This document shows, one piece after another, positions 19,759 through 36,650 of a DNA stretch of 64,000 nucleotides; position 1 is the stretch's first letter; every line of letters starts with the position of its first letter. The notes beneath the pieces are model-generated. The model saw nothing but the letters and a program-made list of their open reading frames with translations. It did not search any database and was not told the DNA's origin. Made by a program: the position numbers and the translations under genes. Source of the DNA: Actinomycetota bacterium (lineage in GTDB: Bacteria; Actinomycetota; Actinomycetes; Nanopelagicales; Nanopelagicaceae); NCBI GenBank assembly GCA_037140155.1, contig JBAXFA010000001.1:36724-100723 (forward strand), written 5' to 3'.

Positions 19759-21192
19759 ATGACATTTGAGTACGCACCAGCTCCTGAATCTCGTTCTATC
19801 GTAGATATCAAGCCAAAATACGGCCACTTTATTGATGGCAAGTTTGTGCCAGGTAAGAAACACTTTGCGACCATAAATCCCGCAACCGAAGAAGTTTTAA
19901 GTCAAATCTCACTTGGCGGTCAGAGCGATGTCGATAAAGCAGTCCTAGCGGCGCAAAAGGCATATACCAAGACTTGGTCAAAGCTGTCTGGCAAAGAACG
20001 TGGAAAATATCTCTACCGCATAGCGCGTATCTTGCAAGAGCGTGCTCGTGAATTTGCAGTGCTTGAAACTTTAGATAACGGCAAGCCAATTCGCGAGACA
20101 CGTGATATCGATATTCCACTAGTTGCGGCACATTTTTTCTATCACGCAGGATGGGCAGATAAATTAGATTACGCTGGCCTTGGTAAATCACCACAGCCAC
20201 ATGGCGTCGCTGGCCAGATAATTCCCTGGAACTTTCCGCTTCTTATGCTGGCGTGGAAAGTTGCACCCGCGCTAGCAACCGGAAATACCGTTGTCTTAAA
20301 GCCCGCTGAAACAACTTCGCTCACCGCACTTCTATTCGCTGAAGTTTGCCAACAGGCCGAACTCCCAGATGGCGTTGTAAACATTGTTACCGGTGATGGT
20401 TCAACCGGTGCGGCAATTGTTAACCATCCTGGTATCCATAAGATCGCATTTACTGGATCAACTGAGGTCGGAAAGAAGATTGCGCGCGCAATCGCTGGCA
20501 CCAATAAGAAAGCCACCCTTGAACTAGGTGGAAAAGGTGCAAATCTTGTCTTTGACGACGCTCCCCTAGATGAGACCGTCGAAGGCATTGTGAACGGCAT
20601 ATTTTTCAACCAAGGCCATGTTTGCTGCGCTGGCTCGCGCTTAATTCTGCAAGAAGGAATTGCCGATGAATTAATCGAAAAGCTAAAGGTTCGAATGGCA
20701 AAGATTCGGGTTGGTGATCCGCTAGATAAGAACACTGATTTGGGTGCGATAAATTCCAAAGAGCAATTAAGCAAGATTCAAGAATTAGCTAGCGCAGGAG
20801 ATTCAGAAGGCGCACAGCGCTGGAGCCCGGCCTGCACGTTATCGGCCAAAGGTTTCTGGTTTGCACCAACAATCTTTACCGGAGTAACTCAAGCTCATCG
20901 CATTGCGCGCGAGGAAATATTTGGACCAGTGCTCTCTATTCTTACTTTCCGCACACCACAAGAAGCGATCGAGAAAGCAAATAACACTCCATTTGGTTTA
21001 TCTGCTGGCGTGTGGAGCGAGAAAGGCTCACGCATCTTGTGGGCTACTCAGCAACTTCGAGCCGGAGTTGTCTGGGCAAATACCTTTAATAAATTTGATC
21101 CAACCTCACCATTTGGTGGTTATAAAGAATCTGGTTGGGGACGCGAAGGCGGCAAACACGGACTAGCGGCATATTTGAAGGAGGGAAAGTAA
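19759..21192 (+). CDS. NAD(P)-dependent aldehyde dehydrogenase
   Basis: 477 aa with both catalytic motifs, ELGGKG and FFNQGHVCCAGSR. Confidence 0.9.
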   Translation: MTFEYAPAPESRSIVDIKPKYGHFIDGKFVPGKKHFATINPATEEVLSQISLGGQSDVDKAVLAAQKAYTKTWSKLSGKERGKYLYRIARILQERAREFAVLETLDNGKPIRETRDIDIPLVAAHFFYHAGWADKLDYAGLGKSPQPHGVAGQIIPWNFPLLMLAWKVAPALATGNTVVLKPAETTSLTALLFAEVCQQAELPDGVVNIVTGDGSTGAAIVNHPGIHKIAFTGSTEVGKKIARAIAGTNKKATLELGGKGANLVFDDAPLDETVEGIVNGIFFNQGHVCCAGSRLILQEGIADELIEKLKVRMAKIRVGDPLDKNTDLGAINSKEQLSKIQELASAGDSEGAQRWSPACTLSAKGFWFAPTIFTGVTQAHRIAREEIFGPVLSILTFRTPQEAIEKANNTPFGLSAGVWSEKGSRILWATQQLRAGVVWANTFNKFDPTSPFGGYKESGWGREGGKHGLAAYLKEGK

Positions 21193-22062
21193 ATGGCTTC
21201 TTCGAAGAAGGTGACAAGTAAGGCGGCAGCTCGCCTAGAAGTTAAGAAGACTTACAAGTTATATATCAATGGCGCATTCCCGCGCAGTGAATCTGGCCGT
21301 GTATATGAAGTTAGCAACGCTAAAGGTGGATTTATTGCGAATCCATCACTTGCATCTCGTAAAGATTTACGTGATGCCGTCGTCGCAGCTCGTGCGGCAC
21401 AAAGCGGATGGGCCAAGGCCACCGCCTATAACCGTGGTCAAATTCTCTATCGCATTGCCGAAATGCTCGAAGGTCGCGCTGATCAATTTGCTTCCGAGAT
21501 ATCACTTGCTAACGGTGTTACTTTAAAGAGAGCGCAAGATGAAGTTGCCACAGCGATCGACCGTTGGGTTTGGTATGCCGGCTGGAGCGATAAGTTATCG
21601 GCAGCCTTCGGAGCCACAAACCCAGTTGCTGGCCCTTATTACAACTTCACTATCCCTGAGCCACAAGGTGTAATCGCAGTCGCTCCCGCCGAAACTTTCC
21701 TCGCCTTTATTGATGCAATTGCACCTGCAATTGTCTCTGGCAATACCGTTATCGCACTTGTTCCTGGTTCTGCCGCGATTGCGGCGATGACCTTTGCTGA
21801 AGTGTTAGCAACAAGTGATCTACCGGCAGGTGTTTTAAATATCTTGACTGGTTCACATGATGAGCTCGCTCCATGGGCAGCCTCTCACATGGATATTGAT
21901 GGATTTGATATCTCTGGCATCGATAAGAAGAAGCGAGCTGACCTTAAAGTCGCGGGCGCTGAGAACTTAAAGCGAATCCATAGCTTTGATGGCGTAATTT
22001 CCCCAACACGTATCTTCGCCTTTATGGAAGCAAAGACGGTCTGGCACCCAATCGGAGTTTAA
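21193..22062 (+). CDS. truncated aldehyde-dehydrogenase-like protein lacking the catalytic Cys region
   Basis: 289 aa. The ALDH N-terminal/cofactor-domain pattern is present (YINGAF..., WAK..., GNTVIALVPGS). There is no FxNxGQxCxA catalytic-Cys motif. The start directly abuts the stop of the upstream ALDH. Confidence 0.7.
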   Translation: MASSKKVTSKAAARLEVKKTYKLYINGAFPRSESGRVYEVSNAKGGFIANPSLASRKDLRDAVVAARAAQSGWAKATAYNRGQILYRIAEMLEGRADQFASEISLANGVTLKRAQDEVATAIDRWVWYAGWSDKLSAAFGATNPVAGPYYNFTIPEPQGVIAVAPAETFLAFIDAIAPAIVSGNTVIALVPGSAAIAAMTFAEVLATSDLPAGVLNILTGSHDELAPWAASHMDIDGFDISGIDKKKRADLKVAGAENLKRIHSFDGVISPTRIFAFMEAKTVWHPIGV

Positions 22063-28315: not shown

Positions 28316-29398
28316 ATGGCATCTGTTGTATTCGAAAACGCAACACGTATTTATCCAGGCACAACCAAACCTGCAGTCGACAAGTTAAACCTAACTGTTA
28401 AAGACGGTGAATTTTTAGTTCTTGTCGGTCCATCAGGTTGCGGTAAGTCAACATCGCTTCGTATGTTGGCAGGCCTTGAAGAGATCGACGAAGGTCGCAT
28501 TCTTATCGGTGACCGCGATGTAACAAACGTTGCTCCAAAAGATCGTGATATCGCAATGGTCTTCCAGTCATATGCGCTATACCCACATATGACTGTTGCA
28601 GAGAACATGGGATTTGCACTTAAGATCGCTGGAGTTGCTAAAGAAGAACGCGATAAGCGCGTTAATGAAGCAGCTAAATTGCTTGACCTTGAACCATATC
28701 TAGAGCGCAAGCCAAAGGCTCTTTCAGGTGGGCAACGTCAGCGCGTTGCAATGGGTCGCGCAATTGTTCGCGAACCACAGGTCTTCCTTATGGATGAGCC
28801 ACTATCAAACCTTGATGCGAAGTTGCGCGTTGCAACTCGTACCCAGATCGCAGCGCTACAGCGCCGCCTCGGAATTACAACTGTCTACGTAACACACGAC
28901 CAAGTAGAAGCTATGACTATGGGCGATCGCGTAGCAGTTCTAAAAGATGGTCTACTTCAGCAAGTAGATACACCTCGCAATCTTTACGATTCACCAGCAA
29001 ATGCATTCGTTGCCGGCTTTATCGGATCTCCTGCCATGAACCTTCTCTCTGCTCCTGTTAGCGGTGGCAAGGCGATGCTTGGTGATCTAGCGATCGATGT
29101 TCCAGCATCTGCCGGATCATCAGTCACAGTCGGTATCCGTCCAGAAGGATTCGCACCTGCTTCAAAGGGCTTTAACGTCCTTGTTGAAGTAGTTGAAGAG
29201 CTCGGTGCCGATGCATTCGTATATGGCAAGCCAGCAGATTCCTCAGTGAAGTTTGCTAACTCTGGCGATGAAGGCGCACAAGTAATTGTTCGTTGGGATC
29301 CAAAGAACCCACCTAAGCCAGGTGACACAATTTCTGTGACAGCTAACGCAAGTGCAGTGCACCTCTTTAGTTCATCAACTGGAGAACGTGTTAAGTAA
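28316..29398 (+). CDS. msiK: sugar ABC transporter ATP-binding protein (MsiK/UgpC/MalK type)
   Basis: Walker [10 protein letters not shown], signature LSGGQRQR, Walker B FLMDEPLS, and a C-terminal MalK-like regulatory domain. Confidence 0.9.
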
Positions 29399-29410
29399 TT
29401 TGAAGTAAAT

Positions 29411-29445
29411 AAAACCCCCGTCACTTATGTGGCGGGGGTTTTATA
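29411..29445. terminator. bidirectional rho-independent terminator between msiK and the enolase-like gene
   Basis: AAAACCCCCGTCAC (29411-29424) / TTAT loop / GTGGCGGGGGTTTT (29429-29442). 14-bp stem with one mismatch, flanked by an A-run and a T-run. Confidence 0.85.
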
Positions 29446-29446
29446 T

Positions 29447-30706
29447 TTAAAAAGGTTTAGAAAACTCTGTCTCTTCGGTTGCTTCTAATTCGAGTAAACG
29501 ATTCCACTTTGCAGTTCGCTCTGATCCATGGGTAGAGCCAACCTTTATCTGTCCGGCGCGCCAGCCCGTTGCTAGATCTGCCAGCCAAGAATCCTCAGTC
29601 TCACCGCTGCGCGCTGATACAACCGTTGCGAATTTATTGGCATGGGCGTTTGCCAACACTCGCTGAGTAGAAGTAACTAAGCCATTTTGATTGGCTTTGA
29701 TCAAAATGGCATTGGCGCTCTTCTCAGCAATGCCACGTTCTAGGCGATGCAAGTTTGTTGTAAATAGATCATCGCCAAGAATTTGTAAATTTGCTGGAGC
29801 CTGCGCATTGAATGCGCTCCAGGCCTGCCAGTCATCTTCGGCAAAGGGATCTTCAATTGAAGAAATTGGATAGGTATTTACTAAATTGAGCATCTCTTCC
29901 ACAAATTGATCTGAAGAATAAGTGGCGCCAGAAGTAGTTAGCGCATACTTATTATCGATAAAGAATTGTGTTGATGCGATATCGAGGGCAAGTGAGACCT
30001 TGTCAGATAGGCCAAGTAGTTCAATTTGAGCAAGAACAAATTCGCAGGCATCGTCAGTTGAAGCAAATGAGAGGCCAAGCCCACCTTCATCTGCCACTAA
30101 GTGGGTTATGCCATGTGTTTTACCATCACTTGCCGCACGTTCGCGAATTGCAACAACCCAGGAAAGTGCCTCAGCAAAATTTGTAGCAGCATGGGGAATC
30201 ACCAATACATCTTGAATATCTAGGCTGCGATTGGCGTGTGCTCCCCCAGATAAAATATTAACCATCGGCATCGGTATCAATAACTTGCCTTCTGGTTGAA
30301 AATACCTGGCCAGCGATTTTCCTGAAGCGTGTGCCGCAGCTTTCGCAACTGCAAGTGAAGTTGCCAGCGTTGCATTAGCGCCGATTACTTGGTGGCCCGG
30401 TGTGGGATCAACTTCAACTAATAACCCATCGATTGCTGCCAGATTGAGACTGTGGCCCAATAATTTAGGTGCGATCTTGGTGTTTATATTTTCAATTGCT
30501 TGATAGACAGATTTGCCTGCGAAGAATTCTTCTGATTTTTCGGTGCCGGCATCACGCAATTCATGTGCTTCATGTGCACCCGTAGAAGCCCCCGATGGCA
30601 CCCGCGCAGTGTGGATAGAACCATCGCTAAGAGTCAGCGTTACCGCAACTGTGGGGCGCCCGCGTGAATCTAGAACCTGATATCCCAGGACGCGTTTTAT
30701 ATTCAC
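29447..30706 (-). CDS. divergent enolase-family protein (paralogue-like)
   Basis: The enolase signatures PSGASTG, ADEGG, ALDIAS, SIEDPF, LGDDLF, LIKANQ, RSGETED and GQIKVGS are present. However, SHRSGETED is SARSGETED and DIQEFMI is DIQDVLV. The GTG start forms a GTGA overlap with the kinase stop. Confidence 0.8.
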   Translation of the reverse strand: MNIKRVLGYQVLDSRGRPTVAVTLTLSDGSIHTARVPSGASTGAHEAHELRDAGTEKSEEFFAGKSVYQAIENINTKIAPKLLGHSLNLAAIDGLLVEVDPTPGHQVIGANATLATSLAVAKAAAHASGKSLARYFQPEGKLLIPMPMVNILSGGAHANRSLDIQDVLVIPHAATNFAEALSWVVAIRERAASDGKTHGITHLVADEGGLGLSFASTDDACEFVLAQIELLGLSDKVSLALDIASTQFFIDNKYALTTSGATYSSDQFVEEMLNLVNTYPISSIEDPFAEDDWQAWSAFNAQAPANLQILGDDLFTTNLHRLERGIAEKSANAILIKANQNGLVTSTQRVLANAHANKFATVVSARSGETEDSWLADLATGWRAGQIKVGSTHGSERTAKWNRLLELEATEETEFSKPF

Positions 30707-31677
30707 TTTGCGGCACTTTCCAAGAGCTGCGTAAGAGTCATATCTGAATCTAACAGCGCCGACTTAGTTAGCGCCACCAATCGTTCTTGAGCAGGTGAAT
30801 CCAAATAATTTACAGGTGATACTCCCTCGACTCGTGCCAGGGCTATCAAGGCAATGTGGTGTGGCAGGCTTGCGGCAACGTTTAACTGAGAATCTTGTTG
30901 ATAGTTGGCGAAGAACTGCTTTGCCGTTTCAACCAATAAATCCTTCTCATCTCCTTGCGAGGCACGAATAATCTTGCATAGTAAGTGCGCAAGTAAAAAT
31001 GCGAGATCAAAGACGGGATTTCCGATATGGGCGACTTCAAAATCAAGGACAATCGGGCGATGATCAGCGGTTGCCATAATATTTTTAGGTGAAAAATCGC
31101 CATGAACTAAAGTTCTCTTTACAGTGGTGATCTCATTTATGAGCCCAGCGATAACCGGCTCTAAGCCTTGATTTTTAGCTAATACCGCGCGATAGAAAGG
31201 CGCCACTCGCAACTGCTCGAAGAGTGAATCTTCCATAAACTTTGCCTTGATCTCATCTGATCCCGCAGCTGCGTTATGCCAAGCAGCCAATATCTTGCCA
31301 AGTCTGGCACCCATCTCAGGATGGATTCGACCTTCCAACATATCTATCTTCCAATTGGTGCAACTTCGTGGCAGACGAGACATCGTTAAGGTGAACTCAG
31401 CAGCATCACAATCAATAAGTTCGGGAACACTTTCTGGAGTTATTGAGTGATAAACCTGCATCGCATCGGCTTCCACGATTGCTCGGCGTTGATCGGCGAC
31501 CCATTTAGCTTTTGTCTTTAACTCAGGTAACGCTTGCTTAACTACGAGATCAACCTCTGCGTTCGAGACGGCTAAGACGACACAAGAAACGCCACCGGTG
31601 AGTGTTTCCACGGTGGCGTTGCCTGTTAATAGTCCGCGCTGTGAAAGGTAGGAAAGAACCGAACCTTCATCGAGCAC
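30703..31677 (-). CDS. APH-fold (aminoglycoside-phosphotransferase/MTR-kinase-like) small-molecule kinase
   Basis: 324 aa. Catalytic loop LVHGDFSPKNIM and metal-binding segment VLDFEVAHIGNPVFDLAF. GTG start. Confidence 0.75.
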   Translation of the reverse strand: MLDEGSVLSYLSQRGLLTGNATVETLTGGVSCVVLAVSNAEVDLVVKQALPELKTKAKWVADQRRAIVEADAMQVYHSITPESVPELIDCDAAEFTLTMSRLPRSCTNWKIDMLEGRIHPEMGARLGKILAAWHNAAAGSDEIKAKFMEDSLFEQLRVAPFYRAVLAKNQGLEPVIAGLINEITTVKRTLVHGDFSPKNIMATADHRPIVLDFEVAHIGNPVFDLAFLLAHLLCKIIRASQGDEKDLLVETAKQFFANYQQDSQLNVAASLPHHIALIALARVEGVSPVNYLDSPAQERLVALTKSALLDSDMTLTQLLESAAK

Positions 31678-31690
31678 GGGAGTTGAGTAC

Positions 31691-32584
31691 TTATCCCTTT
31701 AGCGAACCTGACAAGAGGCCACGCAAGAAGTAACGACCTAAGAATAGGTAGACCAGCAACGTTGGGATCGAAACGATCAGCGAAGCGGTCATGTTATTTC
31801 CGTAGTAAACCTGGTTGCCAGAGCCGGTGATGAAGTTAAGGGCGGTAGTTGCAACCGCTAACTTTGGAGAACCACCGGTTAGGAAGATCGCAAAGAGGAA
31901 GTCGTTCCAAGCAGATGTGAACTGCCAAATAAGAACAACTACGAAGCCAGGGATAGAAAGTGGCAAGAAGATAGTGCGGAAGATTCTTAACATTCCGGCG
32001 CCATCAACACGCGCTGCTTCGATTAGCTCATTTGGGATTGCTGCATAGTAGTTACGGAAGATCAAGGTACAGATCGGAATACCGTAGATAACGTGCGCGA
32101 ATACCAATACATAAATTGAGCCGCCGATACCTGCCCACTGATTGAACTTTGTAAGTGGAATCATGATCGCTTGGTAAGGGATAAACATTCCGAATAAGAA
32201 TGTAGTGAAGATAAAAGTTGATCCCTTAAAGCGCCACTTAGCAAAGACGAATCCATTGATCGAACCGATAATCGCTGAAATAACAGATGATTGCACCACA
32301 AAGAACAAGGTGCGAAGCATCGGTACTTTTAACTGTTCCCAAGTTGGGCCCCAGGCGCTGAAATCTAACTTCTTCGGAGGCAAGAAAGCAGCTGATTGAG
32401 ATACACCAGTAATTCCCTTAACAGAGTTAATTACCATGATGTAAATTGGCAGCGCTGCGATTACAAAGAGAATGCTCAGAGCGAAGTAACGGAAGATCAG
32501 CCAGAACTGGCCTTTGCCATCTAGCTTGCGCTTATTGCGAACATCAACCTTGCGGGTAACGCGGGATGCGATATCTGAACTCAT
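31691..32584 (-). CDS. carbohydrate ABC transporter permease (CUT1, MalG-like)
   Basis: 297 aa, six TM helices, and the EAA loop ELIEAARVDGAGMLRIFRTIFLP. Confidence 0.88.
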   Translation of the reverse strand: MSSDIASRVTRKVDVRNKRKLDGKGQFWLIFRYFALSILFVIAALPIYIMVINSVKGITGVSQSAAFLPPKKLDFSAWGPTWEQLKVPMLRTLFFVVQSSVISAIIGSINGFVFAKWRFKGSTFIFTTFLFGMFIPYQAIMIPLTKFNQWAGIGGSIYVLVFAHVIYGIPICTLIFRNYYAAIPNELIEAARVDGAGMLRIFRTIFLPLSIPGFVVVLIWQFTSAWNDFLFAIFLTGGSPKLAVATTALNFITGSGNQVYYGNNMTASLIVSIPTLLVYLFLGRYFLRGLLSGSLKG

Positions 32585-33504
32585 TTGTTCGCCTCCTCTG
32601 TCTTATTTACATAGATTAGATATGGGATTACCGCTACTGCGATCATCAGCAAGATCAAGACCGCGATCGCTGCGCCCTTGGCATAGTTCTGGAAGTCGAA
32701 GATAACTTGCCACATATAAATGGCGAGCACCTTGGTGACATAGCTCTTGCTGGCGATACCGAAGATTAAGTCGAAGACCTTCATCGATATATGGCCCAAG
32801 ATAATTAAGACCGTTAAAAATGTTGGAGATAGCTGCGGGAACAAGATATGGCGGTAGATCTTGTATTCACTTGAGCCGTCGACTCGAGCTGCTTCGCGTA
32901 GATCATCAGGGATTCCGCGGAAACCCGCTAAGAAGAGCGCCATTACATAGCCAGACATCTGCCAGATCGCCGGCAGCGCCATGGCAAACATGGTGCCCTT
33001 CTCTGATGAGTACCAGTCGTTCTGCAGGAAGCCAAGATGGGCCTTCATGAGCAACATGTTGAGACCAGTTGCATCTTTATCACGTGCTGAGTCCATCAGC
33101 CAGCGCCAAGATGTTCCCATTGCGATGAATGAGATCGCCATTGGATACAAATAGGTAGAGCGGAAGAAACCCTCGCCCTTAATTCCCTTTTCCAGCAGAA
33201 GCGACATAATCAAACCAGAGAGTAAACATCCGATGATGAATACGCCGGTAAATTTTAGAAGATTGCTGAGCGCATGAGTAAATTCTGGGTCTTGCCAGAG
33301 TTCGCGGTAATTGGTTAGTCCTACAAATTTAACATCTGTCGTATAAGAATTAGTGCGGTTCTGTAGTGATTCGCGCACGGTATAGCCGATCATTCCGTAT
33401 ACGAAGACCGCCATTGCAAAAATTGATGGGAGTACGAAAAAGAATCCGCCCCAAGGGCTATGGACTCGATTTTTCTTTACCTTCACTTGAGTCACGCCTC
33501 TCAA
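32581..33504 (-). CDS. carbohydrate ABC transporter permease (CUT1, MalF-like)
   Basis: EAA loop DLREAARVDGSSEYKIYRHILFP. The start is uncertain: TTG 33504 or GTG 33486. Confidence 0.88.
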   Translation of the reverse strand: MRGVTQVKVKKNRVHSPWGGFFFVLPSIFAMAVFVYGMIGYTVRESLQNRTNSYTTDVKFVGLTNYRELWQDPEFTHALSNLLKFTGVFIIGCLLSGLIMSLLLEKGIKGEGFFRSTYLYPMAISFIAMGTSWRWLMDSARDKDATGLNMLLMKAHLGFLQNDWYSSEKGTMFAMALPAIWQMSGYVMALFLAGFRGIPDDLREAARVDGSSEYKIYRHILFPQLSPTFLTVLIILGHISMKVFDLIFGIASKSYVTKVLAIYMWQVIFDFQNYAKGAAIAVLILLMIAVAVIPYLIYVNKTEEANK

Positions 33505-33629: not shown

Positions 33630-34904
33630 TTAGCCGTTTGAGTTAGCAGTGAAAGCAGCAACGAGAGCCTTAGCGAATCCCTTTGCATCCTTTGCACCAC
33701 CTGTGTAGAAGCGACCAACAGCAGCATCGTAAGCAGCCATTCCAGCGTTACCGTAGTTAACACCGTGAACAGTTGAACCGACGAGACGATCTGTCTTCCA
33801 CTCCTTCATTGCAGCCTGTAGGTAGCTGTCGTATAGCGCAGGGTTTGAATCCTTACGCACTGCGATAGAACCCTTCTTAGGGTTGAATGCATCTTGACCG
33901 GCTAGAGATCCGCAGACCTTCAACCAGGCGATACCTGCATCGCGGTTTACAGCGCCCTTAGGCAATGTGAATGAGTCAGAGAGCCACATGTAAACAGGTC
34001 CCTTATCAACGTTGTTTGGAGCAACAGCCCATGTGTAATCAGTACCTAGCTTTAGGCCTTCTGATTGCCACTGTGATGAAGCCCAGTCACCCATGATGAA
34101 GAAGCCGGCTTTGCCTGTTGTTACAAGCTTGCCTGCATCTGGCCAGTCAAGTGACTTGCTTGAGTTTCCGTAAGCAAGGATCTTTGAGAGGTATGTAATT
34201 GCCTTAGCAACTTCTGGACCATCCCACTTTGTCTTGCCATTCCATAGACCGTTGTACTTATCTGCGCCCATTGAGCCAAGAAGTACTACGTCGAATAGGT
34301 GAGCAATCGCCCAGTCGCCGTTACCAGCAAGTGCGATTCCATCAATTCCGGCCTTCTTGAACTTAGCCATTGCAGCAAGCATCTCATCGAGAGTCTTAGG
34401 AGCTGCTGTGATTCCAGCCTTCTTTGCTGCAGCTGGGTTCCACCATAGAACGTTTGCACGGTGGATGTTTACAGGAACGGAGTAAATCTTTCCGTTTGTT
34501 GTAAGTGTCTTGATTAAGTCAGCTGGGAAAATCTTGTCCCATCCTTCTGACTTGTAAAGGAATGAAAGGTCTTCAACCTGTCCAGCCTTTACATAAGATG
34601 ATAGTTCTGCGCCAGCATGTGCCTGGAATGTGTCAGGTGGATTGCCAGCTTGCATACGTGATACGAGAACACCCTTTGCGTTAACGCCAGCTGCACCTGC
34701 AACTGCTGCGTTAATGAATGGTGTCTTTGGATTTAAACGTGTGAACTCAGTTGTCATTCCTGCAAGACCTGCAGCTTCTCCGCCTGATGCCCACCAGGTG
34801 AAGATTTCGAGTTGCTTATCAGTTGCAGCAGATGATGCTGGAGCTGTTGTCACAACAAGTGCAAGTGCAGCGAAGACTGCTGCTACTTTGGACTTCTTTA
34901 GCAT
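33630..34904 (-). CDS. extracellular solute-binding protein family 1 (CUT1 sugar ABC transporter SBP)
   Basis: 424 aa with a signal peptide and the LEIFTWWASGGE start typical of family-1 SBPs. SD GAGAAAGG precedes the ATG. Confidence 0.85.
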   Translation of the reverse strand: MLKKSKVAAVFAALALVVTTAPASSAATDKQLEIFTWWASGGEAAGLAGMTTEFTRLNPKTPFINAAVAGAAGVNAKGVLVSRMQAGNPPDTFQAHAGAELSSYVKAGQVEDLSFLYKSEGWDKIFPADLIKTLTTNGKIYSVPVNIHRANVLWWNPAAAKKAGITAAPKTLDEMLAAMAKFKKAGIDGIALAGNGDWAIAHLFDVVLLGSMGADKYNGLWNGKTKWDGPEVAKAITYLSKILAYGNSSKSLDWPDAGKLVTTGKAGFFIMGDWASSQWQSEGLKLGTDYTWAVAPNNVDKGPVYMWLSDSFTLPKGAVNRDAGIAWLKVCGSLAGQDAFNPKKGSIAVRKDSNPALYDSYLQAAMKEWKTDRLVGSTVHGVNYGNAGMAAYDAAVGRFYTGGAKDAKGFAKALVAAFTANSNG

Positions 34905-35138: not shown

Positions 35139-36650
35139 CTAGGTCAGGGAAGAGAGCTTGTAGAAGGCGCCATTCCACTTAATCTCTTTATGGAAATCCT
35201 CGCTGGTAGTTGAGGCGCTAATTCGCAGATGTTCGACCTGGGCGATATTTGCAAAGTCGACTAAAACTTCTGGGTCAAGAGCGGTGCTTAAAACTGTGTG
35301 GTGCGAACCGCCGGCATAGATCCAAGATTCTGCCGATGTAGCAAGTGATGGCGCAGGTTTCCAAACCGCACAAGCAACTGGCAACTTCTTTAACTCTTTA
35401 TCTGGATTAACTACTTCAACATCGTTAGAGACGATTCGGAAGCGATCACCAAGATCCATCAGACCAACGACTCGACCTTGTGCGGGTGTTGCATTGAAAA
35501 CTAAACGAACTGGATCTTCTTTTCCACCGATGCCAAGAGGATGGATTTCACACTTTGGTTTCTGGTTTGTAATCGTTGGACAAACTTCCAACATATGCGC
35601 ACCAAGAACCTTCGGTTCACCTGGTCCGAAGTGGTAGGTGTAATCCTCCATAAATGATGTTCCACCTGGCAGACCTTCCGTCATGCTCTTAATAATGCGC
35701 AGCAGTGCAGAAGTCTTCCAGTCGCCTTCGCCGCCAAAGCCATAACCCTTTGACATCATTCGCTGCACAGCAAGTCCTGGTAACTGCTTTAGCGCACCTA
35801 GATCCTCAAAGTTAGTTGTAAAGGCGCTGAAGTTTCCGGCGGTTAAGAAAGTTTCTAGTGCAATTTCAAGCGATGCCTGATAACGAAGTGATTCATGGCG
35901 GGCGCCACCCTTTTTAAGTTCGGCAGAGACTTCAAAGATCTTTTCATATTCGGCAACAAGAGCATCGATTGCGGCTGGCTGAACTGCAGCGACGGCATCT
36001 ACAAGTGCGTTTACACCGTAGGCCTCGATCGACATTCCGAGCGTGATTTGCGCGCTTGTCTTGTCGCCATCAGTTACTGCGACATAGCGCATATTGTCGC
36101 CGAAGCGAGCTAGCTTTAAATTCTGTGCCGTGTTCCAGCCAATTGCTGCGCGCATCCAATGTGCGATTCGAGTTGAGACGCTCTTTTCTGAGACGTGGCC
36201 AGCAACAACTTTACGTGGCAAATGTAGGCGCGCTTGCACATGGCCATGTTCGCGATCGCCATGGGCTGCTTGATTGAGATTCATAAAATCCATATCGATG
36301 CTTTCCCATGGAAGCTCAGAGTTAGCTTGGGTATTTAAATGCAGAATTGGAACTTGGAGCGCGTTAAGCCCACCAATCCACATCTTGGCCGGTGAAAAGG
36401 TATGCATCCAAGTTATTACACCGATGCAATTTGGGTTAGCTGATGCCTCGTGACAGAGCGCTTTTATATCTTCCGGTGTCGTCAATACTGGTTTCCAAGT
36501 GGCTTTAATCGGTAGATCACTTGCTGCATTCAGTGTTGCTACAACTTGCTTTGATTGTTCTGCAACTTGCGCCAAAATCTCTGGACCATAAAGCGGCTGG
36601 CTTCCGGTTAGGAACCAGATTTCTAGACCTTGCTCTTGGAGAGATTTCAC
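35139..36650 (-). CDS. araA: L-arabinose isomerase
   Basis: 503 aa. AraA motifs [24 protein letters not shown] and GGSHHTV. Confidence 0.92.

Follow-up and report, generated by a model that had tools for sequence, protein, structure and literature searches.

The enolase family proper is commonly regarded as having a single function; the enzyme called 'enolase' in methionine salvage is of RuBisCO-like or HAD type and stands outside this family. A kinase that activates a hydroxylated small molecule for a subsequent elimination is known from the pair formed by hydroxylysine kinase, which has the APH fold, and phosphohydroxylysine phospho-lyase. PhpH, an enolase homologue from phosphinothricin-tripeptide biosynthesis in Streptomyces, reportedly (Blodgett et al. 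2007) acts on a modified 2-substituted glycerate and not on 2-phosphoglycerate (2-PGA). Here, we analyse an enolase homologue of 419 amino acids that is encoded, with a GTG start and as the last cistron of its operon, at positions 29447 to 30706 on the reverse strand of a 64-kb stretch (64,000 nucleotides, hereafter the window) of contig JBAXFA010000001.1 from an actinobacterium of Candidatus Planktophila or the Nanopelagicaceae (acI). The window protein carries Asp at the position of Glu168 and Ala at that of His373 (yeast numbering; hereafter D/A), belongs to a clade that shares these residues, and is linked to a gene for an APH-fold kinase. Judging from the sequences, kinase and enolase homologue might together form a two-step cassette that phosphorylates and then dehydrates a 2,3-dihydroxy acid, favourably a C3-substituted one, a proposal to which we give an even chance of being right; the reaction of the window gene probably differs from the one implied by its annotation as "enolase", and its substrate is probably something other than plain glycerate.

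Active-site residues and the D/A clade

Both enolase domains, and with them the Enolase_N plus TIM-barrel architecture of the family, are recognised by Pfam at full length in the window protein (Enolase_N, 1.3e-39; Enolase_C, 1.1e-72), and solved enolases from the PDB align with it end to end (E = 1e-98 to 1e-76) and free of gaps near the catalytic motifs. The motifs PSGASTG, ADEGG, ALDIAS, SIEDPF, LGDDLF, LIKANQ, SARSGETED, GQIKVGS, DIQDVLV and STHGSER are all found, and Ser38, His157, Gln165, Glu207, Asp242, Glu285, Asp313, Lys337, Arg366 and Lys388 are retained (Ser39, His159, Gln167, Glu211, Asp246, Glu295, Asp320, Lys345, Arg374 and Lys396, respectively, in the yeast enzyme). Among the features by which membership of the family was judged, the metal ligands, Ser39, Lys345, Glu211, Lys396 and Arg374 are present, and with 399.5 bits the protein also exceeds the cut-off of the enolase model TIGR01060 (300 bits; canonical enzymes reach 642-680 bits). 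The best database matches are 93% identical, and NCBI and JGI label the protein enolase. Pfam, the PDB alignment and the residue check thus agree with an earlier note on this DNA, which had named no strand and according to which the full enolase scaffold and the metal and phosphate ligands are kept.

In contrast, the likewise diagnostic and otherwise invariant Glu168 and His373 are replaced. In the gap-free PDB alignment as well as in alignments of the family, Asp166 (codon GAT, 30209-30211) lies under the canonical catalytic-site Glu and Ala365 (codon GCG, 29612-29614) under the canonical His, both codons being on the reverse strand. This is what the earlier note had proposed, and its own caveat, that careful alignment might reveal both residues to be conserved, does not apply. 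With these two invariant residues missing, the window protein falls outside the canonical enolases of EC 4.2.1.11. A third change had escaped the earlier note, which counted ADEGG among the kept motifs: Ala205 (codon GCA, 30092-30094, reverse strand), two residues before the general acid Glu207, is a clade-specific change, present in 92% of the D/A loci described below, whereas 99% of the canonical representatives (87 of 88) have the Gly of GDEGG at this site. The replacement that the note had reported in the SRSDR loop is real in the window (STHGSER, where the loop Arg is lost to Gly394; codon GGA, 29525-29527, reverse strand), but is no family trait, being confined to the Planktophila lineage; in the majority of the clade an Arg is retained at this site or at the one before it.

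The distribution of the D/A pattern was surveyed in two ways. In a library of representative proteins clustered at 50% identity, the best 149 matches were aligned, of which 43 have Asp at position 168, 36 have Ala at position 373 and 34 have both, and 100 combine Glu with His; Ala at position 373 is found in 34/34 D/A cluster representatives and His in 88/88 canonical ones. The second survey used a degenerate DNA pattern that encodes residues 364-402 only (S-A-R-S-G-[ED]-x-E ... K-[VI]-G-S ... R..K-[WY]-N) and has a single match in the window, where chance would give 0. Run on GTDB contigs with one genome per species, it returned at least 120 loci, and all locus counts given here are to be read as counts among the matches listed. 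These come from at least eight bacterial phyla and include Actinomycetota, Alpha-, Beta- and Gammaproteobacteria, Planctomycetota, Verrucomicrobiota, Acidobacteriota, Chloroflexota, Bacteroidota and Deinococcota. Since the pattern leaves position 166 free, the presence of Asp there in 112 of the 112 loci that cover it, as opposed to Glu in 88/88 canonical representatives, is an independent test of covariation.

Across the clade, the changes from Glu to Asp and from His to Ala are seen to covary in the aligned sequences far beyond what chance would produce, and the window protein fits the complete signature (Asp168, Ala373, the Ala of ADEGG, and Val/Ile after Lys396). In a neighbour-joining tree, 84/84 full-length D/A sequences fall into one clade with the canonical enolases outside, and the distinct enolase lineage with an altered active site that had been suspected from the window alone is borne out by clade, covariation and tree together. 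As D/A proteins score 400-524 bits on TIGR01060, both clades pass its cut-off, and annotation pipelines accordingly call all of them phosphopyruvate hydratase.

Ser39, which in enolase ligates the second Mg2+, is kept in the window protein, and its position is occupied by Ala in 50 of the 106 D/A loci that cover it (PAGAS(T/R)G), compared with 8/88 canonical sequences. Ala versus Ser at this site may mark D/A subfamilies with different metal or substrate handling.

Kinase linkage and operon context

Directly upstream of the enolase gene lies a gene for an MtnK-like APH-fold small-molecule kinase of 324 amino acids (30703-31677, reverse strand; Pfam APH, NCBIfam MtnK, PDB 2olc), whose TGA stop overlaps the enolase GTG start in a GTGA at 30703-30706 (gcaaaGTGAat). 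A homologue of this kinase is encoded within an 8-kb stretch in 86 of 120 species-level loci, in 76 of the 86 directly upstream of the D/A enolase gene or overlapping it, usually by 4 bp (ATGA or GTGA), while in about 24 of the 34 kinase-less loci the sequence breaks off within 1.2 kb of the enolase gene on its upstream side. Metagenomes also contain single-reading-frame proteins in which a full APH domain is followed by full enolase domains (P0125 with 745 amino acids; P0135 and P0285 with 770 amino acids, this latter form being found on six contigs). In the reverse direction, a profile built from 56 of the kinases retrieved at least 3396 homologues, and those looked up on long contigs all had a D/A enolase gene within 6 kb (7/7, beside the kinase gene or, in one case, 5.7 kb away from it). 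Finally, pairwise divergences of kinase and enolase are correlated (r = 0.87, Mantel p = 0.001), to which the shared species phylogeny contributes.

Plasmids provide a natural control. Among the plasmid-borne enolases inspected, 5/5 with an APH kinase neighbour are D/A (Rhodococcus pseudokoreensis; R. opacus PD630 pRoPD630_1; Sphingobium sp. TomTYG74, annotated as 'eno_2'; Methylobacterium nodulans pMNOD02; Azospirillum brasilense Sp7 plasmid p1), whereas 8/8 without the kinase are canonical. The latter are those of Azospirillum TSH58 and of Sp7 plasmid p3, both adjoining pflB-pta-ack, of a tartrate cluster with glycerate kinase and pyk in Burkholderia sp. YI23, of Cupriavidus taiwanensis (pyk-gapN-ppc) and C. 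pinatubonensis (glycerate kinase and pyk), of Methylocystis, of Methylocella (beside crcB), and of Tsukamurella (in a glycolytic cluster). In particular, the extra enolases that stand beside a classical glycerate kinase and pyk (loci L127 and L134) keep Glu168 and His373. Conserved adjacency in many phyla, gene overlap, two-domain reading frames, correlated divergence and the split between plasmids consequently tie the D/A enolase functionally to the kinase, as the earlier note had supposed from the window; throughout the clade, the kinase gene is nearly always a neighbour or fusion partner of the enolase gene.

A. brasilense Sp7 has both types, the D/A cassette being carried by plasmid p1 and a canonical enolase gene by plasmid p3, so that in this strain the D/A gene is an accessory paralogue; its plasmid-borne state in Rhodococcus, Methylobacterium, Sphingobium and Azospirillum agrees with such a status outside the window lineage. 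In Planktophila, the cassette is found in two different loci, that of the window and L009. Planktophila belongs to acI, a lineage of freshwater Actinobacteria that ranks among the most abundant bacteria of fresh water. The representative P0132 had been considered as the canonical enolase of acI, but it proved to be alphaproteobacterial. On plasmid 2 of Methylocella tundrae (L136), the canonical enolase gene directly follows crcB (fluoride exporter) and a universal stress protein gene, an arrangement that has no relation to the D/A clade and follows a known pattern, in which an additional enolase is associated with fluoride stress.

The kinase family keeps the GGVS nucleotide loop, the MtnK-typical segment KxaLxxLxVxxdWxaxxxRxxxE, the catalytic HGDxSPKN and the DxE metal motif, and is predicted from these to be catalytically competent. 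An identity with MtnK of methionine salvage was rejected: MtnK is the best NCBIfam match of the window kinase with only 68.8 bits against a cut-off of 275 (PDB 2olc, an MtnK, at 6e-8), D/A-linked kinases in general score 48-69 bits on this model (TIGR01767), and neither the window nor related loci contain MtnA or MtnB.

Gene order and spacing vary in some groups. On the Rhodococcus plasmids (L123 and L126) and on pMNOD02 of M. nodulans (L125) the enolase gene comes first and the kinase gene second, with stop and start still overlapping, the Rhodococcus cluster reading FAH, CtBP-like dehydrogenase, enolase, kinase, FAH. In the Burkholderiales (L138, Cupriavidus sp. TA19; L048, Variovorax; L059, Ralstonia pickettii), the D/A enolase gene lies several kb away from the kinase gene, next to genes for an SsuE-like FMN reductase, a two-domain glyoxalase/extradiol-dioxygenase-like protein, a CMD-family protein and a cupin, and the kinase gene is accompanied by genes for LacI, an MFS sugar transporter, FAH and a D-2-hydroxyacid dehydrogenase (2-Hacid_dh); a different or extended pathway could operate in this group.

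In the window, the kinase gene is preceded by a sugar transporter operon on the same (reverse) strand, consisting of genes for a solute-binding protein (33630-34904; Pfam SBP_bac_1; PDB 2b3b, E = 1.5e-91) and the two CUT1-type ABC permeases 1 (32581-33504; Pfam BPD_transp_1, NCBIfam GlcT-like) and 2 (31691-32584; Pfam BPD_transp_1, NCBIfam GlcU-like), the latter separated from the kinase gene by 13 nt. On the forward strand, a convergent gene codes for an ABC ATPase resembling MsiK/UgpC/MalK (28316-29398; Pfam, NCBIfam), which is probably the energising subunit of this transporter. Between the two convergent genes, a G + C-rich hairpin with a U-tract (29409-29444; -22.6 kcal/mol, z = -6.0, with 0/200 shuffled sequences as stable) is a bidirectional intrinsic terminator that follows the enolase gene and separates it from the ATPase gene. 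The place of the enolase gene as last cistron, overlapping the kinase gene, is as the earlier note had it. The sugar ABC operon, to which the note had also pointed, is real in the window but lineage-specific and not the defining context: as a conserved partner the transporter was discarded, homologues of the window permeases or solute-binding protein being found in only 2 of 120 loci, and the CUT1 arrangement beside the cassette is kept only within a close acI group. The gene order of the window, including the convergent ATPase gene, recurs in Candidatus (Ca.) P. lacus CP016783.1, and metagenome contigs of acI show it as well.

A gene for a full-length L-arabinose isomerase (AraA; 35139-36650, reverse strand; NF002795, 768 bits) lies 234 nt upstream of the transporter operon, of which it is a neighbour and only a candidate member. 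It occupies the same place in Ca. P. lacus, is absent from the other D/A loci, and stands alone, with housekeeping genes on one side (the icd, mdh, folD region, as in L001), the operon on the other, and no araB or araD near it in the window or in Ca. P. lacus; AraA may act on the imported sugar, e.g., as a galactose/arabinose isomerase, or be unrelated. Two adjacent forward-strand reading frames of 477 and 289 amino acids (19759-21192 and 21193-22062) match neighbouring Aldedh-family genes beside the DeoC gene in Ca. P. lacus and acI contigs (L001, L129), the shorter of them appearing to be a truncated aldehyde dehydrogenase.

Proposed function and its alternatives

In yeast enolase, the side of the active site that carries Glu168, His373 and the Gly before Glu211 holds the C3 hydroxyl and a water network. 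The changes of Glu168 to Asp, of His373 to Ala and of this Gly to Ala alter, and mostly enlarge, the C3 side, which favours a C3-substituted substrate; the absence of D/A changes from enolases linked to classical glycerate kinases points the same way, i.e., away from glycerate. In the proposed cassette, the MtnK-like kinase would use ATP to phosphorylate the 2-hydroxyl of a (2R)-2,3-dihydroxy-carboxylate, and the resulting 2-phospho-acid would be bound by the D/A enolase through its unchanged site of two Mg2+, Lys396 and Arg374. Lys345 (Lys337 in the window protein) would then abstract the C2 proton and Glu211 (Glu207) expel the C3 hydroxyl, leaving an enol phosphate, either phosphoenolpyruvate (PEP) or a 3-substituted PEP, whose phosphoryl group might be returned to ADP and render the dehydration ATP-neutral. 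A C4-C6 aldonic acid or another 3-substituted glycerate is the favoured candidate substrate, and in Planktophila the cassette is attached to a hexose-type ABC importer. That the clade as a whole represents an uncharacterised cross-phylum module for the ATP-neutral phosphorylative dehydration of a non-glycerate 2,3-dihydroxy acid to a 3-substituted PEP we hold to be slightly short of an even chance.

Beyond the cassette, all-against-all clustering of reading frames revealed no third universal gene, but only enolase, kinase and shadow frames in other frames or on other strands, and censuses of the Pfam families of first neighbours are heterogeneous, with 2-Hacid_dh, FAH and short-chain dehydrogenases/reductases (SDRs) recurring in subsets only. 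D-2-hydroxyacid dehydrogenases are encoded in 17-18 of 120 loci and FAH-family proteins related to 2,4-didehydro-3-deoxy-rhamnonate hydrolase or HpaG in ten; further neighbours include SDRs, ILVD_EDD and UxuA dehydratases, GFO/IDH/MocA proteins and xylose-isomerase-like proteins. DctP-DctQ-DctM form a TRAP carboxylate importer. A set of these genes is encoded on plasmid p1 of A. brasilense Sp7 (L132, NZ_CP012915.1, 1072134-1085330) together with a PhyH dioxygenase, a GntR/FCD regulator, the kinase and the D/A enolase; this cluster is unannotated, and the strain, being genetically tractable, offers a good experimental entry point. Elsewhere, the cassette is accompanied by TRAP, MFS or other ABC transporters and by enzymes for sugar acids or hydroxy acids. 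In Ca. Planktophila sp. BS7, at a locus that differs from that of the window, it lies between SDR genes and faces genes for an ILVD_EDD dehydratase and an FAH hydrolase, while homologues of these BS7 sugar-acid genes and 2-Hacid_dh genes were not found anywhere in the 64-kb window. The recurrent neighbours have carboxylate or sugar-acid character, and a carboxylate substrate is plausible.

Two apparent leads from the neighbourhoods were discarded. A fusion of enolase and 2-Hacid_dh in a metagenome-assembled genome (L142, 9026-11242, CAVRCA010000003.1, 738 amino acids) is a frameshift or gene-calling artefact, since in the correct frame SARSGETED...KVGSFARSER and a stop codon are restored and the dehydrogenase is a separate, overlapping gene. 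A phosphonate-biosynthetic, PhpH-like reading of kinase-less D/A loci in Streptomyces lacks supporting neighbours.

The same neighbourhoods could, however, be read as a route from plain glycerate to PEP, in which the kinase would be an unrecognised, fourth-class D-glycerate 2-kinase, the D/A protein a dedicated 2-PGA enolase, and the D/A pattern an oddity of an old lineage that is tolerated or has a regulatory role; we regard this as rather unlikely, but as the most serious alternative. The glycerate would come from hydroxypyruvate via the neighbouring dehydrogenase or from 2,4-diketo-3-deoxy-hexonate hydrolysed by the neighbouring FAH enzymes. In line with this, a 2-Hacid_dh gene adjoins the cassette in L138-L140, L142-L144, Rhodococcus and Sphingobium, and a D-2-hydroxyacid dehydrogenase does so in five of six distinct proteobacterial contexts sampled through the kinase. 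The best matches of these dehydrogenases are phosphoglycerate, glyoxylate and hydroxypyruvate reductases, although all remain under the family cut-offs, and in BS7 the cassette is accompanied by SDRs, ILVD_EDD and an FAH enzyme related to 2,4-didehydro-3-deoxy-rhamnonate hydrolase. Moreover, the carboxylate, phosphate and metal ligands are all unchanged, and catabolic clusters do recruit extra enolases (L127, L134). As none of the three glycerate kinase classes described in a review has the APH fold (PMC2063504), a new class is conceivable. Full-text literature searches yielded no report of an APH-fold glycerate kinase and none of 2-phospho-aldonates as intermediates. What speaks against a glycerate route is that precisely those recruited enolases which stand beside a classical glycerate kinase and pyk keep Glu and His, while the kinase-linked copies are all D/A, and that both residues are invariant in the 88 canonical enzymes sampled. 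It is also difficult to see why a genome of about 1.4 Mb should keep a redundant 2-PGA enolase, or why 2-PGA, a free central metabolite, should call for tight coupling and fusion. Of the 34 species-level loci with complete flanks, only two have a 2-Hacid_dh gene next to the cassette, and only four have one in any position.

The cassette might also use the same scaffold for another chemistry, which we consider improbable: a phospho-lyase elimination, the loss of a different C3 leaving group (e.g., of sulfite, in a reversed ComA reaction with 2-phospho-3-sulfolactate as substrate), or an epimerisation or enolisation of the 2-phospho-acid. The residues changed are those handling the C3 leaving group, pairs of APH-fold kinase and phospho-lyase are established in other families, and some neighbourhoods contain sulfonate- or sulfur-associated genes (FMN_red, Bac_luciferase, TauD, sulfatase, DoxD/DoxX). 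These genes are sporadic, though, with no recurring sulfite exporter or oxidase, and the strict conservation of Glu211 and Lys345 suits hydroxide as the leaving group better than an anionic one. The 2-phosphate site has also kept all its ligands.

A drifted housekeeping enolase, possibly the sole glycolytic one and placed behind the transporter operon by chance, is very improbable. Its score above the TIGR01060 cut-off, its database name and the lack of another enolase in the window are what such a gene would show; yet the protein lies 240-280 bits under canonical enzymes on that model, its closest relatives are accessory, plasmid-borne and kinase-linked in bacteria that also have canonical enolases, Planktophila has the cassette in two loci, and purifying selection, not drift, acts on the D/A pattern throughout the clade. 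Least probable of all is a non-metabolic pair, i.e., an APH-fold protein kinase regulating a moonlighting enolase or a catalytically dead enolase scaffold, for although the APH fold is common to protein kinases and weak TCAD9 and Bud32 matches occur, all catalytic and metal-binding residues except the D/A pair are conserved across phyla, the kinase has MtnK-type small-molecule motifs, and the neighbours are transporters and catabolic enzymes.

Several observations weigh against a phosphorylate-then-dehydrate cassette for a C3-substituted acid. With no universally conserved third gene, the pathway cannot be read from context, and the neighbouring D-2-hydroxyacid dehydrogenases and diketo-acid hydrolases would fit plain D-glycerate production equally well. 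The nearest solved relative of the window solute-binding protein is the glucose/galactose-binding protein of Thermus (2b3b), and it looks like a binder of these sugars and not of sugar acids. The exact split between D/A and canonical enolases has a bootstrap of only 45/100 in the neighbour-joining tree, the His373Asn variant of yeast enolase is said to retain about 10% of its activity, and full-text literature searches found no description of the D/A clade. What most limits the paralogue reading for this Planktophila genome is that tblastn of the 64-kb window found no second, canonical eno; the acI genome paper states only that Embden-Meyerhof-Parnas glycolysis is complete (PMC5301498).

If the proposed cassette is real, it would add a second physiological reaction to the enolase family proper and a new route for sugar-acid carbon to the abundant freshwater Actinobacteria, and thousands of 'phosphopyruvate hydratase' entries would be misannotated. 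Carriers of D/A enolases range over at least eight phyla and comprise plasmids of well-studied soil bacteria as well as acI Actinobacteria; should the function differ, metabolic reconstructions that count D/A proteins as glycolytic enolase would be wrong for those genomes. The new kinase specificity and the new enolase-type reaction would be directly assayable, and the signature of Asp168, Ala373, ADEGG and an adjacent kinase gene can be used at once as an annotation rule. Even if the glycerate route were true, the kinase would still be an unrecognised fourth glycerate kinase class.

Comparison with known systems

With canonical enolase (EC 4.2.1.11; TIGR01060; PDB 3qn3, 7ckp and 1ebg), the window protein shares the fold, 42-47% identity over the full length, the Mg2+ ligands, and Lys345, Glu211, Lys396, Arg374, His159 and Gln167. 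It differs in that Glu168, His373 and GDEGG are replaced by Asp, Ala and ADEGG throughout its clade, whose members score 120-280 bits lower on TIGR01060 and whose genes are linked to a kinase gene instead of to glycolytic or cell-division genes. Within a fold and a mechanism that are already known, the window protein represents a new variant.

The closest parallel in logic is offered by catabolic modules of glycerate 2-kinase, enolase and pyruvate kinase from tartrate/glycerate clusters, as in Burkholderia sp. YI23 (byi_1p) and Cupriavidus pinatubonensis (p2), where a kinase likewise stands beside a dedicated extra enolase and a hydroxy acid is converted via a 2-phospho-acid to an enol phosphate. 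Those modules, however, employ the classical glycerate kinase family and a Glu/His enolase, whereas the D/A cassette combines an MtnK-like APH-fold kinase with a D/A enolase in overlapping or fused genes and has no linked pyk. MtnK itself (TIGR01767; 2olc) is the closest characterised relative of the kinase and shares KQALP...W...R...E, HGD..N and DxE with it, but is set apart by score and by its MtnA/MtnB partners.

PhpH would be a precedent for an enolase-family member with a substrate other than 2-PGA; its gene belongs to a phosphonate cluster with PEP mutase, where the modification is on the phosphate side, and the kinase-less Streptomyces D/A loci inspected are without such genes. In the pair of hydroxylysine kinase and phospho-lyase, finally, the second enzyme is a lyase dependent on pyridoxal phosphate that expels the phosphate, whereas the D/A enzyme, with its enolase fold, most likely leaves the phosphate in place and eliminates the hydroxyl next to it.

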